UHGV virus genome: UHGV-1767510
Origin: a virus
Length of the DNA: 18,381 nucleotides
Strand: one strand, 5' to 3'
Part shown: positions 1 through 18,111 of the stretch, piece by piece
How positions within the stretch are numbered: the first letter of the stretch is position 1
How the letters are laid out: every line of letters begins with the position of its first letter
Position numbers and translations under genes: made by a program
The notes under the pieces: generated by a model
Told to the model about the DNA's origin: nothing
The model's database searches: none
What the model saw: the letters and a program-made list of their open reading frames with translations, nothing else

Positions 1-129
1 CAGCGATGCCAGAGCAATTCGTGCCAGTTCTTCCGCTTCTTCTGCTGGCAGTACAACGTTGCTACCAGGTTCGTATGTTTCGCGCCACTGCCTGATTGTC
101 AGCAGTCGCTCTTTGGTAATAGTGGTCAT
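1..129 (-). CDS. Hypothetical protein, 5' part only (runs off left edge)
   Basis: Reverse complement of 127-129 is ATG; the reading frame stays open to the window edge (MTTITKERLLTIRQWRETYEPGSNVVLPAEEAEELARIALASL...). Same orientation and tight spacing as the downstream leftward genes. No family recognised. Confidence 0.3.
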   Translation of the reverse strand, partial: MTTITKERLLTIRQWRETYEPGSNVVLPAEEAEELARIALASL

Positions 130-3609: not shown

Positions 3610-3742
3610 TCTTTGGGACTCCTGGCTGATTAAGTATGTCGATAAGGCGTTTCCATCCGTCACGTAATTTACGGGTGATTCGTTCAAGTAAAGATTCGGA
3701 AGGGCAGCCAGCAACAGGCCACCCTGCAATGGCATATTGCAT
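3602..3742 (-). CDS. cIII: CIII protein (FtsH inhibitor, stabilises CII)
   Basis: MQYAIAGWPVAGCPSESLLERITRKLRDGWKRLIDILNQPGVPKNG is essentially the lambda CIII sequence. ATG at 3740-3742 is preceded by AAGGAG; the upstream part of the 80-aa track ORF is not coding. Confidence 0.8.
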   Translation of the reverse strand: MQYAIAGWPVAGCPSESLLERITRKLRDGWKRLIDILNQPGVPKNG

Positions 3743-3802
3743 GGTGTGCTCCTTATTTATACATAACGAAAAACGCCTCGAGTGAAGCGTTATTGGTATG
3801 CA

Positions 3803-4712: not shown

Positions 4713-5096
4713 TCACCTCGCCGTCAGTTGTTTTGATTTCCGGTAGCCTGCCGCGTAAATGGCTACGTTTGGAAGACATACACCAGTTTCTGGTTGCCTA
4801 TGCCCAAACTCATTCGCGTACACAATGGCCGCTCTCTCCAGATTGCGTCTGTATTCTTTCTGTTGCCAGATCACGTCCTGTGCCATGAACTTAATTGGCT
4901 TAGCGTCTTCTATGCGCTCAGGCGTTTCGTGTTTACCTTTAGCCTGAATCTGTGCCAGACTGAGGGTAGGGCGGTGTAATACTTCTGAACTTATTGCTTC
5001 TTCGCGGGCCAGCACGCCGTTAGCTAATGCCTTTGCCTTTAAACGCTCACGACGACGAGAACGTGAATTGCCTTTGAACTGAGTTCTGCGTGTCAT
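4713..5096 (-). CDS. N: Antitermination protein N (P22/Stx-phage type)
   Basis: Arginine-rich N-terminal motif (GNSRSRRRERLKAKA) and C-terminal ...AAGYRKSKQLTAR typical of N-family proteins. First gene downstream of pL/nutL. Confidence 0.8.
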   Translation of the reverse strand: MTRRTQFKGNSRSRRRERLKAKALANGVLAREEAISSEVLHRPTLSLAQIQAKGKHETPERIEDAKPIKFMAQDVIWQQKEYRRNLERAAIVYANEFGHRQPETGVCLPNVAIYAAGYRKSKQLTAR

Positions 5097-5276: not shown

Positions 5277-5337
5277 CGTAGATTCATATTCGAATCGTTG
5301 TATATTCACCGCCCTGGTGAGTAGTGCGTCCTGCTGA

Positions 5338-5550: not shown

Positions 5551-5578
5551 GCAAAGAAAACCCGGCTCGGTGGCCGGG
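5551..5578 (-). terminator. Intrinsic terminator ending the cI / cassette transcript
   Basis: Hairpin cccggc-tcggtg-gccggg (5561-5578) followed on the - strand by TTTTCTTTG; lies 8 bp past the stop of the 310-aa gene. Confidence 0.6.
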
Positions 5579-5585
5579 TGAGATA

Positions 5586-6518
5586 TTAAAGAACCGATTT
5601 AACAAGATGGTTTTTACGGTACAGACCTATGCGATCATTGTGAATCTCAGTAGTCTCCACTAAAAGAGAAACAATCTGTCCGACCTTGTGTTTTTTTTGT
5701 ATTAAATCTAGCATTTCAATCGGATAGGAAGCCTTTAAATGTTCACCACCAACATCAAGCTCCAGCTTCCCATATTTGGATAGAACGACCAGTTCGCCTG
5801 TAACCGTTTCAGTAATGGGAGGGGATGAAATGGTTGATGTAAGTCTACTCACCAAGTACTTAATTTTATTGGAGTCAATAGTTGCCACCTTGGTGCCATT
5901 ACTAAATGGACCGGTCCAACTTGCATCAAATGTTAAGTTGTGTTTATCGCATTCCTCTACGATTCTCTTAAGGCTTACAGTGGAATTGTATCCAATTTCA
6001 GCGACGTGATTCATGAAGTTGTTGTCGTCATCGCTTAACAACAAATCGAATATGCCTTTTACAGCCTTGCTGGGTACTGTTTCTACTAATTCTGCTATTC
6101 CTGTAGAGAAGGTGACGCCCAATTTTGTAGACCCAGGGGATAAATCAGCCAGCCTGAGGTTTAAGGAGCTTTTCACGTCGTAGGGAACTTTTTTTGAGTC
6201 CTTGCCTGAGGCAATTTTGTGTGTTGCTCTTTGTATTAGCGCTGCAAGATTTGTTGAAATAGCCCCAAGCAGCTCTAAAGGAATAGAGCCAAAGTCAACC
6301 TCAGAGCCTTTCAGCCGCAGCTCAAAAAAATCGATAAGTGGGTGCCGACTATCTTGCTTTAATTTTTCGGCCTTCAAATCGCTCAGATGAGAATCCATGG
6401 AGCGATAAAGAAGCATGTCAGCAAAGGACCTGGTTTTGTTTTGCTTCATTGCATCGACTTCTTTTTGAATGAAATCAATGCGTTTATCGCAATTTTTAAA
6501 CATTGATTTATCATTCAT
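5586..6518 (-). CDS. Unknown 310-aa protein, second gene of the rex-slot cassette (candidate effector or partner)
   Basis: Long ORF translationally coupled to the upstream gene (ATGA overlap at 6515-6518). No motif I can assign (no Walker A, HEPN, HNH or PD-(D/E)xK signatures seen by eye). Confidence 0.7.
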   Translation of the reverse strand: MNDKSMFKNCDKRIDFIQKEVDAMKQNKTRSFADMLLYRSMDSHLSDLKAEKLKQDSRHPLIDFFELRLKGSEVDFGSIPLELLGAISTNLAALIQRATHKIASGKDSKKVPYDVKSSLNLRLADLSPGSTKLGVTFSTGIAELVETVPSKAVKGIFDLLLSDDDNNFMNHVAEIGYNSTVSLKRIVEECDKHNLTFDASWTGPFSNGTKVATIDSNKIKYLVSRLTSTISSPPITETVTGELVVLSKYGKLELDVGGEHLKASYPIEMLDLIQKKHKVGQIVSLLVETTEIHNDRIGLYRKNHLVKSVL

Positions 6519-6994
6519 AAAAAAATCCTCACTAACCCTTTCGGGTTTTCACTGCGATCAAAACCAAACCAACCGCGCCAGTAGCTACGCCAGTACTCAT
6601 AATCATAGTTAGGGTCATCTAAATTCTTCATGAGTAGTAGGACATCAATTTTGTAGTTTTGTTTGATGTAGTTTCGGTCAAGCAAATTATCGACGCGGCC
6701 CCGAAGCATGACAGGTATTGAGTTTATATTGCTATAGTCACATACCAACAAAATATCAATATCATCAGGCTCTGGTTTAGACGTGGTGTATGAACCATCA
6801 ACCCATATTTCTGTAAAACAGCCATATTGAGCAGATAATTCTCGAATAGATTCGAGTAGCTGTATAAAATTACAGTATAGCATGCCTCGCCTGGATGATG
6901 AAGGAAAGCAATCGACACAATACGATTTTAATCCAGCTTCATCCATGTCATGGAACCCTGGCTCAAACAGGGGTGGGTAATTAATTTTATCCAT
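6515..6994 (-). CDS. Putative minimal nucleotidyltransferase-fold protein (159 aa), first gene of the rex-slot cassette
   Basis: Motif WVDGSYTTSKPEPDDIDILLV fits the Pol-beta superfamily NTase signature hG[GS]-x9-Dh[DE]h. RBS AAGG 6 nt before the ATG. Lies immediately downstream of cI, where lambda has rexA. Confidence 0.65.
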   Translation of the reverse strand: MDKINYPPLFEPGFHDMDEAGLKSYCVDCFPSSSRRGMLYCNFIQLLESIRELSAQYGCFTEIWVDGSYTTSKPEPDDIDILLVCDYSNINSIPVMLRGRVDNLLDRNYIKQNYKIDVLLLMKNLDDPNYDYEYWRSYWRGWFGFDRSENPKGLVRIFL

Positions 6995-7143
6995 AAAAAA
7001 CCTTGCTATACATTTGTTTTTTTTATTAAAAATCTAACCACCGAAATGGTGACGGCAAGATGTTACATGGGGTTACAATCAGCCAATACACCGCATTAAA
7101 TAATTTTTTCACCAGCTATGCGCCGACCAGAACACCTTGCCCA

Positions 7144-7860
<717 letters not shown>

Positions 7861-8771: not shown

Positions 8772-9624
8772 TCTTGCAACCGTAACACATTTAAGGCCTT
8801 CACAACGGCCTGTGGAGCGTCGTGTGGCAGAAGTTGAAGATGGTTATACCCGTCTTGCAAATGCCCTGTATGAAGAGCTTATCGGCGCAGATTTAACAAA
8901 AAATCAGAGTAAGGTTGCCCACGCCATATGCCGTAAAACATACGGATACGGTAAAAAGATGGATCGCATCTCTGATAGTCAGTTAGCTCAAATTACCAGG
9001 CTGCCAAGACAGAAGGTAAACAAGGCCAAGAATGAGCTTATCGCGATGAAGGTAATCCTTCGCGAAGGCCAGCAAATCGGGCCTAACAAGAACATCGAGG
9101 AATGGCAAATCGAAGGGTGTCACTACTCTGGTGATAATGTCACTGCATTGGTGACAAAAAGTGTCACCAAAACGGTGACAGCGCTGTCACCAAAACAGGG
9201 ACACACAAAAGAAACTATTACAAAAGAAAAAAGAAATAATAAAAACACTATGTCCGAAAGTGTTCGGACGGAGTGTGAAAAATCATCTGACCGTCACGAA
9301 GAAACCGACAAGGCATTCGAGGAAATATTCTGGTGTGCAGGCATGCGGAAAGCCGGGAAGAAAAACGCAGCTTCGGCATTCAGAACACAGTTCAGGGAAT
9401 GGCGTAAAACTACCAGGGGTACGGCAAGCGAGTTTGCCACGATGCTGGCAGAAGACATCGCATGCAGGAATGGTAAGCAGTTCGGATTCGACAGGTTGTT
9501 ACCATCGAGCTACCTGAACGGTCAACGCTGGAACGACGAAAAGCCAGAAACCATTCAACCACAATCCAAACCATCATCCGCAATCACCGTATCGAAAACT
9601 GGCTACGTGTTTTTCGACAGGTGA
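8764..9624 (+). CDS. O: Replication initiator protein O (lambda O family)
   Basis: 286 aa. N-terminal region resembles lambda O (...[56 protein letters not shown]...). Iteron-type origin lies inside the gene, as in lambda. Confidence 0.85.
9131..9250. repeat. Replication origin (ori-lambda-like): iterons followed by an AT-rich segment
   Basis: Three to four repeated inverted-repeat units of the form tgtcacc-aaaac-ggtgaca (about 9148-9204) inside the O gene, then an A-rich tract (9205-9250). Analogous to the four 19-bp O-binding iterons of lambda. Confidence 0.6.
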
Positions 9625-9627
9625 ACC

Positions 9628-9735
9628 ATGAAATCAAAAATCAAATCGCTACTGGTCGCTGGTTATAACCACGGCTGGTTAAGTATTTCGTTTGTCGATT
9701 TCTGGTTTAAAAATCTCAATCTGAGGGAATCATGA
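9628..9735 (+). CDS. Small hypothetical ORF (35 aa) coupled to the primase-helicase gene
   Basis: ATG at 9628 with AGGTGA upstream; ends in an ATGA overlap with the start of the 968-aa gene. MKSKIKSLLVAGYNHGWLSISFVDFWFKNLNLRES. Could equally be non-coding leader. Confidence 0.2.
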   Translation: MKSKIKSLLVAGYNHGWLSISFVDFWFKNLNLRES

Positions 9736-12638
9736 CGCCAAGTGAACTTAGCGACCTGCTTTGGGCGCAGGTTGACAGGGTGGCTCCGCACCTGTTGCCA
9801 AACGGCAAGAAAGAGGGGCATGAGTGGGTTGCCGGTAACATCAACGGTGACAAGGGAAACAGCCTTAAGGTCAACCTTAGCGGCAAGAAAAAATGGGCTG
9901 ATTTCGCCGAGGGAGACGGCGGTGACATGCTTGATTTGTGGATGGCATGTCGTGGAATTAACCTGCATCAGGCTATGCAGGAAGCGAAAGCATTTCTCGG
10001 TATCAAGGATGACGATCACCATTTCGATGCCAGACGTGAGAAAAAATTCTCCAGACCTGATCGCAAGAAAATCGCCCGCTACGTTACCAGAACAGAATCC
10101 CATCTTGAGTACCTGCAATCGCGTGGCATATCGCCAGAAATCGTAAAGCGCTACGAGGTTGTCAGCGGCAAGGTGTGGAATGGAGAGCGGGAACTGGATG
10201 CTCTGGTGATTCCGTACAAACGCGATGGTGAGTTGTTGCAGGTCAAGCGAATCAGCACTGAGCGCCCGGACGGGAAGAAAGTCATTATGGCAGAAGGTGA
10301 TTGCGAACCTTGCCTGTTCGGATGGCAGGCTCTGGACGCTGGCGTGAGGGCGGTTGTGCTTTGCGAAGGCGAAATTGATTGTATGAGCTATGCGCAATAC
10401 GGCATCTCGGCGTTATCCGTGCCGTTTGGTGGCGGGAAAGGCGCTAAGCAACAGTGGATTGAGTTTGAGTATCACAACCTCGACAGGTTTGAGGAAATAT
10501 TCATCTCGATGGACGTTGATGATGTTGGTCGTGAAGCCGCAAGGGAAATCGCAAGCCGACTCGGTGAACATCGTTGCCGTCTTGTTACTCTGCCGTACAA
10601 AGACATCAACGAATGCCTGATGAACGGTGTTACCGAGGATGAAATCTGGCAGTACATCGGCACGGCATCCTACTTCGATCCTGAAGAACTCTACAGCGCG
10701 CGAGAGTTTTACCAGGACACTATCAACGCTTTCTACGGCAAGCAGCAGTATCTGTTTAATCCACCGTGGGAATCTCTGGCAGATAAATTCCAGTTCCGTG
10801 AGGCAGAGTTGACGCTGGTCAATGGTGTGAACGGTCACGGAAAAGCCTGTCCACTTGATGAACCAATTCTGCTCGCTAATGGTGAATGGACTACTCACGG
10901 GGATGTAAAAATTGGCGATCAGGTGGCATCAGTAGACGGCAATCCGTCAACTGTCACCGGGATATTCCCGCAGGGTGTTAGAGATGTTTACCGAGTCACA
11001 TTTGAAGATGGTCGTTATGTTGATTGCGCAGGCGATCACCTATGGGAGGTCACTAGTCGTGGATTCACGAAAGGCGAGAAGCGCCGCGTGATAGACACCT
11101 TCGAGCTGAAACGGTTGAGTGAAACGAAGAGGCACAAAAATGGCGTCAGGATACCCGAAATAACTGGTGACTTTGGCGACCACTCAGAGCCATTAGCATG
11201 GGTTATCGGCTCCCTTCTCGGGGATGGTAGTCTTAGCAATGGGAGCGTGAAGTTTTCAAACGTCGAGCCATACATGATCGAGCGTATGAAGGCTGAACTG
11301 CCTGATTACAACTTTTCTGGAGATGGTAAGGACTGGCTGATATCAACGGCGCGTGGTCAGGTAAATCCACTCATGGAGACCCTGCGAGTTTATGGACTAA
11401 TGGGGTGCACAGCAAAAAACAAATTCATCCCTCGTGTGTTTTTTTCCGCAAACAAATCAACGCGTATAGGAATGCTGTGTGGTCTGCTTGAAACGGATGG
11501 TTATGTCGAGAAGGATGGAACGCTTGTTTTTTCCTCAGCAAGTGAAGAACTGCGTAATGGGGTTGTTCAACTGGTTAACTCACTCGGCGGTTCATGCCGG
11601 ACGCGAGTTAAAACTGGCGTGACATACACATACAAGGGCGATAAGCGGCATGGGATGGATTCATATGAGGCAAGGATACGACTGACAAGGGAAATCAGGG
11701 AGGCCATCCGTTCACCACGACTCAATGGCAGATTAACTGCGCATCGATTCGAGGGGTGTGGGGTATTCGTCAGGAATGTTGAAAAAATCGGCAATGCAGA
11801 ATGCTTGTGTATCATGGTCGATCACCCTCGCCACCTGTATGTAACCAGAGGATATGTGGCAACGCATAACACCGAGGTTGTCGGGCATATGGCGCTTGAG
11901 GCAATGCGTCAGGGTGTGAAGACGTGCATCGCGTCACTTGAGCTGAAGCCTGGTATTCTCCTTAAGCGCCTTACCCGTCAGGCGACGTGCTGCAAGATGC
12001 CGCCAGTGCTGGAAATTGACTCTGCATTTAAATTTTATGACGAAAGACTTTGGGTGTTTGGCCTGACCGGAACGGCGAAAGCCGACAGGCTGATCGAAAT
12101 ATTCGACTACGCTCGCCGCCGATACGGGATCCAGTTATTCATCATCGACAGCCTGATGAAATGTGGCATAGGCGACGATGACTATAACGGGCAGAAGGCG
12201 TTTGTTGACTCGATTTGCGACTTCAAAAACAAAACAAACTCCCACGTCATTCTCGTTACTCACTCGCGAAAAGGAGACAGCGAAGAAAAACCAACCGGGA
12301 AAATGGACGTAAAAGGCTCTGGAGCGATAACAGACCTGACAGACAACCTTTTCATCATCTGGCGTAACAAGGCTCGCGAGAGAGCGTTACAGAGAGTTCA
12401 GAGTGGTGAAAAGATGTCAGAGAAGGACGAACAGCTACTGGCATCTCCGGCATCTGTTTTGATGCTTGAAAAACAACGTAACGGCGAAGGTTGGGAAGGT
12501 GGTGTCCCGTTGTTCCTTGACGAGCAATCGCACCAGTTCCTGCAACTTGAATCAGGATCGCCATATAGCTACATCGCCAATATGCCGAAATCGGAATATG
12601 ACGAGGCGTGGCGACAGGAAAACGTGACGGAGTATTAA
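9732..12638 (+). CDS. Bifunctional primase-helicase (Toprim primase domain + DnaB/gp4-like helicase domain) interrupted by an intein
   Basis: 968 aa. N-terminal Toprim-like motif (VVLCEGEIDCMSY). Walker A GVNGHGK[A]-T split by the insert; Walker B-like LFIIDSL and VILVTHSRKG downstream. Occupies the slot of lambda P (helicase loader), following O. Confidence 0.85.
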   Translation: MTPSELSDLLWAQVDRVAPHLLPNGKKEGHEWVAGNINGDKGNSLKVNLSGKKKWADFAEGDGGDMLDLWMACRGINLHQAMQEAKAFLGIKDDDHHFDARREKKFSRPDRKKIARYVTRTESHLEYLQSRGISPEIVKRYEVVSGKVWNGERELDALVIPYKRDGELLQVKRISTERPDGKKVIMAEGDCEPCLFGWQALDAGVRAVVLCEGEIDCMSYAQYGISALSVPFGGGKGAKQQWIEFEYHNLDRFEEIFISMDVDDVGREAAREIASRLGEHRCRLVTLPYKDINECLMNGVTEDEIWQYIGTASYFDPEELYSAREFYQDTINAFYGKQQYLFNPPWESLADKFQFREAELTLVNGVNGHGKACPLDEPILLANGEWTTHGDVKIGDQVASVDGNPSTVTGIFPQGVRDVYRVTFEDGRYVDCAGDHLWEVTSRGFTKGEKRRVIDTFELKRLSETKRHKNGVRIPEITGDFGDHSEPLAWVIGSLLGDGSLSNGSVKFSNVEPYMIERMKAELPDYNFSGDGKDWLISTARGQVNPLMETLRVYGLMGCTAKNKFIPRVFFSANKSTRIGMLCGLLETDGYVEKDGTLVFSSASEELRNGVVQLVNSLGGSCRTRVKTGVTYTYKGDKRHGMDSYEARIRLTREIREAIRSPRLNGRLTAHRFEGCGVFVRNVEKIGNAECLCIMVDHPRHLYVTRGYVATHNTEVVGHMALEAMRQGVKTCIASLELKPGILLKRLTRQATCCKMPPVLEIDSAFKFYDERLWVFGLTGTAKADRLIEIFDYARRRYGIQLFIIDSLMKCGIGDDDYNGQKAFVDSICDFKNKTNSHVILVTHSRKGDSEEKPTGKMDVKGSGAITDLTDNLFIIWRNKARERALQRVQSGEKMSEKDEQLLASPASVLMLEKQRNGEGWEGGVPLFLDEQSHQFLQLESGSPYSYIANMPKSEYDEAWRQENVTEY
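10848..11870 (+). mobile_element. Intein with LAGLIDADG homing-endonuclease domain, inserted in the helicase P-loop
   Basis: In-frame 341-aa insert starting CPLDEPILLANGEW... and ending ...YVATHN followed by Thr (+1 nucleophile). Two LAGLIDADG-like motifs (VIGSLLGDGSL; LCGLLETDGYV). Removing it restores a P-loop. The N-terminal boundary could be one residue earlier (Ala, 10845), which would give a perfect GVNGHGKT Walker A. Confidence 0.7.
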
Positions 12639-17955: not shown

Positions 17956-18030
17956 GGGTCAGTCGTATAAAGGTCATTACGGAAGGCTGTTAACCTTCTT
18001 ATCGTGGTTCGAGTCCACGCTGTCCCGCCA
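17956..18030 (+). tRNA. tRNA-like gene, anticodon GUU (Asn) by manual folding; possibly degenerate
   Basis: Manual cloverleaf: acceptor gggtcag/ctgtccc with one T-T mismatch, D-arm with GG, perfect anticodon stem gaagg/ccttc with loop CTGTTAA, T-arm cgtgg-TTCGAGT-ccacg, discriminator G and encoded CCA. Confidence 0.45.
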
Positions 18031-18035
18031 AACAT

Positions 18036-18111
18036 GCTGGTTTAGCTCCAATGGTAGAGCAGTCGCCTTGTAAGCGAATGGGTAGCGGTTCAAGTCCGTT
18101 AACCAGCACCA
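18036..18111 (+). tRNA. tRNA gene, anticodon UGU (Thr) by manual folding
   Basis: Manual cloverleaf: perfect 7-bp acceptor gctggtt/aaccagc, D-arm gctc-CAATGGTA-gagc, anticodon loop CTTGTAA (stem with one G-A mismatch), T-arm agcgg-TTCAAGT-ccgtt, discriminator A and encoded CCA. Confidence 0.7.

Follow-up and report, generated by a model that had tools for sequence, protein, structure and literature searches.

The question raised by this locus is whether a two-gene cassette lying behind a phage repressor gene has a promoter of its own or rides on the transcript of the repressor. The window (the whole stretch of DNA analysed here, 18,381 nucleotides of the virus genome UHGV-1767510) is a lambdoid phage segment with an immunity region of the lambda type. 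A preliminary description of it took the gap between cI and the cassette as a sign that the cassette was inserted together with its own promoter. We believe the gap has a more ordinary explanation. The spacer is probably the fossil end of a repressor gene followed by the cassette's own leader, and the cassette would then be transcribed along with cI, at the distal end of a cI-A-B message.

Layout of the locus

The immunity region contains N, pL/oL, cI, the promoter pR (TTGACT-17-GATAAT), Cro, CII and an O-like protein. The parts of it that the argument needs, with the cassette, are as follows.

4713 to 5096, - strand: N, from the ORF list
5560 to 5579, - strand: Timm-like intrinsic terminator, a hairpin with a U-tract closing the cI-A-B unit, from folding and from homology to the flanks of lambda rexAB and of the HK544 genes
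5586 to 6518, - strand: cassette ORF B, 310 aa, PADLOC PDC-M63B
6515 to 6994, - strand: cassette ORF A, 159 aa, DUF6932 in Pfam and PDC-M63A in PADLOC
6995 to 7143, - strand: the spacer between cI and ORF A, 149 bp, from the ORF boundaries
7144 to 7857, - strand: cI repressor gene of the lambda immunity type, 237 aa, Pfam HTH_3 and Peptidase_S24

The repressor gene is close to that of lambda itself, with about 96% nucleotide identity to lambda cI. The two cassette ORFs overlap by 4 nt, and both are recognized by PADLOC HMM sets, ORF A by PDC-M63A (1.8e-41) and ORF B by PDC-M63B (7.5e-45). ORF A also matches the Pfam family DUF6932 (1.7e-24). Adjacent A (DUF6932) and B genes that match both HMM sets are a PDC-M63 pair in the PADLOC sense, which makes the pair a candidate defence cassette. 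When PDC-M63AB was deleted from E. coli NILS69, no phenotype was seen (10.1101/2024.12.20.629700). Our literature search found no paper on DUF6932 function or on transcription in phage mEpX1, which carries the same cassette annotated as hypothetical. The GC content is 0.40 in ORF A, 0.41 in ORF B and 0.455 in cI. The hairpin at 5579-5560 has a folding energy of -13.6 kcal/mol, and its counterpart in HK544 is annotated as the Timm terminator.

The rest of the window has features of its own. Downstream of the O-like gene lies an ORF of 968 aa (9732-12638, + strand) with Toprim primase and AAA_25 (DnaB-like) helicase domains, which are interrupted by Hint and LAGLIDADG domains. Judging from these domains, it looks like an intein-bearing primase-helicase that replaces lambda P. 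Adjacent genes for tRNA-Asn(gtt) and tRNA-Thr(tgt) are found at 17956-18111 (+ strand), and the lambda cIII thermoregulator RNA element (RF01804) is matched at full length at 3697-3755 (- strand) with 88.5 bits.

Size and composition of the gap

The gap between the cI stop and the first cassette ORF is real, and the ORF coordinates give it a length of 149 bp. It has been called AT-rich, which is true of the spacer overall (38% GC against 45% for the window) but hides the fact that it is heterogeneous. The 35 nt nearest to cI are 60% GC, while the distal 114 nt (7108-6995) are only 32% GC and fall in the lowest 1.5% among windows of 114 nt.

The case for an independent promoter began by taking rexA to lie close behind cI in lambda. 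This premise is mistaken, as 112 bp lie between the cI stop and the rexA start there (NC_001416). In HK544 the gap at the same position is 122 bp, and other cassettes begin 47-380 nt beyond an 18-nt search pattern that lies within the junction block described below. A gap of the size seen in the window is therefore normal at this position. Setting the window beside the cI-rexA junction of lambda, as the preliminary description proposed, brings out a gap in lambda too rather than a contrast in spacing, but it does reveal that the sequences are unrelated beyond a common block of 35 nt. We believe that a gap downstream of cI is simply the normal architecture of the accessory hotspot between cI and N and does not point to an independent promoter. 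Gaps like it occur at this position elsewhere and the promoter-like matches in this one are at chance level. The spacer finding by itself is of little weight.

The junction block

The cI-proximal part of the spacer is best understood together with the last codons of cI.

7109 to 7143, - strand: junction block TGGGCAAGGTGTTCTGGTCGGCGCATAGCTGGTGA, 35 nt, 60% GC, reading GKVFWSAHSW-stop, with the relic stop at 7111-7109
7144 to 7170, - strand: last 27 nt of cI, QWPEETFG-stop, the left part of a mosaic joint in the alignment

When lambda, HK544, mEpX1 and the window are aligned, QWPEETFG-stop and the next 33-35 nt are common to all four. The conservation ends at ...CATAGCTG followed by GTGA, GTAA or ATAA, and the sequences are unrelated beyond. 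Lambda and HK544 depart from the window exactly at the end of the 35-nt block. On the other side, the match to mEpX1 extends to window position 7170 although the repressor of mEpX1 differs upstream. The segment QWPEETFG-stop is thus common at the nucleotide level to unrelated repressors, the mEpX1 cI being one example, and it is also present as a relic behind several other repressor ends.

A search of IMG/VR with an exact 18-mer from the junction block, CTGGTCGGCGCATAGCTG, returned 77 contigs. In nearly all of the 77 a stop codon stands directly 3' of the block (GTGA, GTAA, GTAG; lambda has ATAA), and unrelated sequence follows. In the enteric contig L013 an intact S24-type repressor of 245 aa ends in ...IIGRVFWSSHSW and a stop (at greater length, ...VRIIGRVFWSSHSW and a stop). 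In the other enteric loci the block is covered by short ORFs only. A high-GC contig, L064, likewise has a repressor of 226 aa that ends in ...GEIVWSAHSW and a stop (at greater length, ...ILGEIVWSAHSW and a stop). Since the block can be read in frame and intact repressors with a homologous end exist, we are confident that it is a fossil, what remains of the 3' end of a different S24 repressor allele. It has what one would look for in a fossil gene end at a mosaic joint, namely a C-terminus with its stop, intact homologues elsewhere, and variable sequence on both flanks. Among 78 loci there are about 21 kinds of sequence upstream of the block and about 20 kinds of cassette downstream. The most frequent cassettes are rexAB (about 20 loci), that of the window (17-18) and the HK544 type (8-9).

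We suggest that a repressor swap by recombination would have left 35 nt from the 3' end of a LexA/S24-type repressor gene as a dead remnant. Joined to the final 27 nt of cI, this remnant makes up a conserved joint, and to its left and right repressors and accessory cassettes have been exchanged among lambdoid phages. The length available for pairing is 35 nt, or 62 nt if the cI tail is included. The minimal pairing segment for Red-beta is 23-27 bp (PMC3945230). The block is longer than this, and its length fits homologous recombination as the route of exchange at the joint. At the opposite border of the slot, homology to the lambda and HK544 flanks begins at the Timm hairpin, so Timm belongs to the backbone and not to the cassette.

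Relics of this kind are often stacked. In many lambdoid contigs (L013, L009 and L017-L019 are examples) relics of differing repressor C-termini (FWS[AS]...) lie one after another 3' of the functional repressor. The order in L013 is the real end, then a (Q)WPEETFG-stop relic, then a GKVFWSAHSW-stop relic. As we read these sequences, the stacked relics record successive replacements of the repressor. We found no published description that treats the junction as a fossil repressor end, in a search that did not extend to Degnan et al. 2007.

On this interpretation the first 35 nt after cI, those of lambda included, mark the left border of a variable cassette slot. The junction block is a concrete case of short relics that could act as homology arms for cassette exchange of the Red type. 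The exact 18-mer has a practical use as well, for it pulls about 20 types of cassette out of viral contigs and is a simple handle for cataloguing candidate defence genes expressed from prophages. In the loci L038-L113 that contain it, the first ORF in the slot may be as short as 51 aa or as long as 434 aa, and the majority of these ORFs are uncharacterised here.

The blocks also differ slightly among themselves. Two linked C-to-G differences flank the cI stop at window positions 7142 and 7147, giving GGGTGATGGG rather than GGCTGATCGG on the - strand. The GGGTGATGGG variant is found only in blocks adjoining the window's type of cassette (10 loci and the window, among the 78 loci). We considered whether it is a compensatory change and rejected this; the long-range stem described below is altered by only 1.7 kcal/mol, and linkage explains the variant.

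The leader of the cassette

What remains of the spacer belongs to the cassette.

6995 to 7108, - strand: AT-rich leader, 114 nt, 32% GC, delimited by comparison of cassette copies
7017 to 7024, - strand: poly-A tract, A8 here and A7 to A9 among otherwise identical cassette copies
7001 to 7004, - strand: Shine-Dalgarno sequence AAGG, 6 nt from the ORF A ATG (6994-6992), read from the sequence

Apart from the length of the poly-A tract, the leader is identical in 16-17 copies of the cassette. The leader, ORF A and ORF B are found with 98-100% identity behind 8 different repressor 3' ends, and because the same leader stands behind all 8, it is part of the mobile unit. Leader and cassette move as one. 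From the end of the junction block to past ORF B, mEpX1 and the window are 99.6% identical. The leader is not homologous to the spacers of lambda or HK544.

The leader is most likely the untranslated intercistronic region and the translation-initiation region of ORF A. Folding of the leader gave no significant secondary structure (z = +1.04). Rfam matched no family to the spacer or its surroundings, either at the gathering score or with E values up to 5; the only names returned, freshwater-1 and TP53TG1, were far below threshold. It is important to realize that, with all copies of the leader identical, their comparison carries no information on which bases matter.

Relatives of the cassette

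More distant relatives are useful here. Those in viral contigs have 87%, 62% and 58% protein identity to the cassette, and those in genomes of Biostraticola, Silvania, Citrobacter and Proteus have 56-62%. In five of six genome loci, and in the viral locus L035, the A-B pair follows a repressor-like gene (HTH and/or S24) on the same strand; the loci with this repressor context come from Enterobacterales and Marinomonas. Gaps between repressor and cassette in the six genome loci are 26-192 nt. The leaders of the relatives are not homologous to that of the window, save for about 45 nt common to the window and the 87% relative, L020. In the leaders of 9 relatives promoter-like matches are at chance level, no promoter or operator is conserved, and the AAGG Shine-Dalgarno sequence is the only common element.

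In other phyla the A-B pair is widespread, and its arrangement is sometimes different. In several non-enteric genomes it lies behind a divergently oriented gene, and there it must have its own promoter. As a separate observation, the DUF6932 gene and its partner of about 310 aa are kept as a pair, usually overlapping or tightly adjacent, across the loci L119-L149. Pairs outside repressor contexts occur in Bacteroidota, Nitrospirae, Parcubacteria, Planctomycetales, Neisseria and others.

Promoter signals in the spacer

We take a sigma-70 promoter to be a pair of hexamers near TTGACA and TATAAT, spaced by 16-18 nt, that stands above a background of matched composition. The preliminary description spoke of several near-consensus -10 and -35 hexamers on the - strand. 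A promoter scan for sites of at least 9/12 found none in the spacer, and relaxing the scan brought up nothing better than 8/12:

7031 to 7058, - strand: best sigma-70-like match, TTGCCG-16 nt-TAGATT, 8/12, overlapping the hairpin listed in the next section

Between 58 and 64% of dinucleotide shuffles reach this best score, so the spacer has no promoter signal above chance. With no such signal, the spacer is most likely an ordinary intercistronic one.

The strongest objection to this conclusion is that the match could nonetheless be a weak constitutive promoter, reading from 7058 to 7031 and starting transcripts near 7024, so that the cassette would be partly independent of pRM and pRE. The spacing is acceptable, and by the same measure the match is on a par with lambda pRM, which scores only 7/12 in the same scan; a weak promoter in the spacer may therefore escape a consensus scan. 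The leader is AT-rich and moves with the cassette, and the pair can carry a promoter of its own, to judge by its place behind divergent genes in some phyla. In L020 the 87%-identical cassette shows ATGTCA-18-GATAAT, which scores 9/12, in about the corresponding place. We still think that such a promoter is unlikely. The L020 match is not significant, as 24% of shuffles are as good, and no promoter position is conserved among the 9 leaders. The hairpin takes in the candidate -35 hexamer and the 16 nt that follow it. The cassette also lacks a private terminator, Timm being common to other cassettes, and in the analogous units cI-bstA and cI-rexAB transcription comes from the cI promoter.

Pairing within the spacer RNA

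The spacer might also act as RNA. The elements that would be involved are these:

7032 to 7061, - strand: imperfect hairpin that holds the cacc/ggtg repeat (7039-7051) and is followed by U5 at 7032-7028, from folding
7131 to 7141, - strand: 5' arm of an inverted repeat, GGCAAGGUGUU, inside the junction block, from repeat search and folding
7054 to 7064, - strand: 3' arm of the same repeat, AACAUCUUGCC, from repeat search and folding

The short repeat cacc-gaaat-ggtg was noticed earlier and is indeed present, but at 7039-7051 and not at 7043-7055. By itself it makes 4 Watson-Crick pairs. The hairpin around it (7061-7032) has 10 pairs, of which 3 are G-C, and a loop of 8 nt, with an energy of -7.2 kcal/mol and z of -2.06 (9 of 200 shuffles fold as well). 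Terminator-like matches in the region number 4 against 2.7 expected and are not enriched. Going by this predicted fold, the hairpin would be at most a weak, leaky terminator-like element.

The half-site of the lambda operator consensus is TATCACCGC, and the spacing is 3 nt. We rejected the cacc/ggtg repeat as an operator for lambda CI, as its likeness to the half-site is loose, its spacing is 5 nt and not 3, and the leader stands behind 8 unrelated repressors. The motif CACC-N5-GGTG does occur three times in the window (5307-5319, 7039-7051, 9165-9177) against 0.21 expected, and none of 200 shuffles reaches three, an excess that was spotted post hoc and in a motif whose spacing is unlike that of lambda operators.

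The two arms of the longer repeat are 11 nt each and 91% complementary, and their duplex has an energy of -17.4 kcal/mol. The 3' arm AACAUCUUGCC has a second complementary partner in the Shine-Dalgarno region, GCAAGGUUUU (7006-6997), with a duplex energy of -8.4 kcal/mol, and this second pairing appears in the MFE structure once the 5' arm is blocked. One could build from this a regulatory RNA element that tunes the output of the cassette per cI transcript, either by a leaky terminator or by alternative pairing of AACAUCUUGCC with the junction block or with the Shine-Dalgarno region. The terminator-like hairpin lies on the transcribed strand with a local fold better than most shuffles, and the duplex that the junction block forms with the leader in the window scores z = -2.4 (p about 0.025). 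We find this element doubtful, more so than the weak promoter. The hairpin is weak beside Timm (-7.2 against -13.6 kcal/mol), the fold of the whole spacer is not significant (z = -1.46), and the leader alone shows no tendency to fold, as described above. We looked at the pairing of junction block and leader as a conserved feature and rejected it, as the mean z over the 14 cassette types that share the block is -0.2, and one p of 0.025 among 14 is expected by chance. Identical copies leave covariation no signal.

A more elaborate form of this idea would make the spacer a three-part switch that couples expression of the cassette to translation of cI. In one state AACAUCUUGCC (7064-7054) may pair with GGCAAGGUGUU, which begins 3 nt past the cI stop, leaving the Shine-Dalgarno sequence free and the weak terminator hairpin disrupted. 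In the other, ribosomes finishing cI may cover the block, and AACAUCUUGCC may then pair with the Shine-Dalgarno region or with its partner strand in the terminator hairpin. If this were true, the dose of the cassette would track translation of the cI message, and leaderless pRM transcripts would differ from pRE transcripts. The model was built from predicted pairings and we regard it as improbable.

Least plausible of all, to the point of being far-fetched, is that the spacer, alone or with the first codons of ORF A, is a DNA element like aba by which the phage shuts off its own cassette in lytic growth. The analogy is with the BstA self-immunity element, 63 bp made up of 29 bp upstream and the first 34 bp of bstA, which occupies the corresponding place behind cI (PMC8585504); the ORF A start is indeed spanned by an imperfect inverted repeat of A and T only (6984-7001/7016-7033), but it is low-complexity A/T, there is no sequence similarity to aba, and defence by PDC-M63AB is itself only a candidate function given the NILS69 deletion.

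Expression with cI

This leaves the reading of the spacer as a fossil block and a leader within a cI-A-B transcript. In a lysogen, transcription from pRM, or from pRE while lysogeny is being established, would pass cI, then the fossil block and the leader, then A and B, and would stop at Timm (5579-5560) in the manner of lambda cI-rexA-rexB. ORF A would be translated from its own AAGG in an AU-rich, largely unstructured leader. The layout is that of an operon of repressor and accessory genes, with co-oriented genes directly downstream of the repressor, a Shine-Dalgarno sequence of their own, and a strong terminator only after ORF B. By analogy with the known units of this type we infer that A-B is co-transcribed with cI.

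There are arguments against this model and they deserve to be stated. The leader hairpin with its U5 might reduce read-through. The match TTGCCG-16-TAGATT could be active, weak promoters being able to evade a consensus scan. The A-B pair stands behind a divergent gene in several non-enteric genomes, so a promoter of its own is possible elsewhere. We believe that transcription with cI nevertheless accounts best for the locus.

Comparison with known systems

The idea of a moron-style insertion was right in one respect and not in another. A moron, as Juhala et al. (2000) are said to have defined it, is an autonomous unit of promoter, gene and terminator inserted in a phage genome. The cassette resembles one in being sporadic and lower in GC than its neighbours, and between the same flanks other phages have rexAB, the HK544 genes or hicAB, with about 20 types of cassette altogether. 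It is a mobile accessory cassette that brings its own upstream non-coding DNA, and it is probably expressed from the prophage, as morons are. Unlike a moron, it has no promoter of its own that the scan of the spacer could detect, and no terminator of its own, Timm being part of the backbone. Strictly speaking, the term moron does not apply to it.

One close parallel is cI-rexAB of lambda, in which the rex genes are transcribed from pRM (PMC11077077). Position, orientation, the presence of a non-coding gap, the same 35-nt block at the start and a homologous Timm at the end are all alike. The differences are that the spacers are unrelated past the block, the leader being 114 nt here and about 77 nt in lambda, and that the window encodes the DUF6932/PDC-M63 pair A-B and not RexA and RexB.

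A second parallel, and the best-studied analogue, is cI-bstA of prophage BTP1 in Salmonella Typhimurium D23580, where RNA-seq reads cross a gap of 88 bp and the one TSS is that of the cI promoter (PMC7067206). There, too, an accessory gene, in this case one for defence, lies directly downstream of a prophage repressor and co-oriented with it, with a non-coding gap between. BTP1 belongs to another phage lineage, its protein is a different one and the sequences are unrelated. It also carries the aba self-immunity element at the start of the gene (PMC8585504), to which the window offers at most the loose analogy described above.

The interval between cI and N is already known as a mosaic region in which accessory and defence genes concentrate; PMC8585504 and PMC7067206 cite Degnan et al. 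2007 for this. The variable cassettes of the wild lambda-immunity phages HK97, HK544 and HK106/mEp234 (hicAB) occupy the same hotspot and have the same flanks, the cI 3' end with the junction block to one side and Timm to the other, and differ from the window in what the cassette contains. The joint itself resembles the lambdoid mosaic joints of De Paepe et al. 2014 (PMC3945230), in which a short conserved stretch lies between unrelated modules. It differs from them in that a specific origin can be assigned to it, the last 10 codons and stop of an S24 repressor, and in the stacking of relics. In its architecture the spacer adds one more case to a kind already known.
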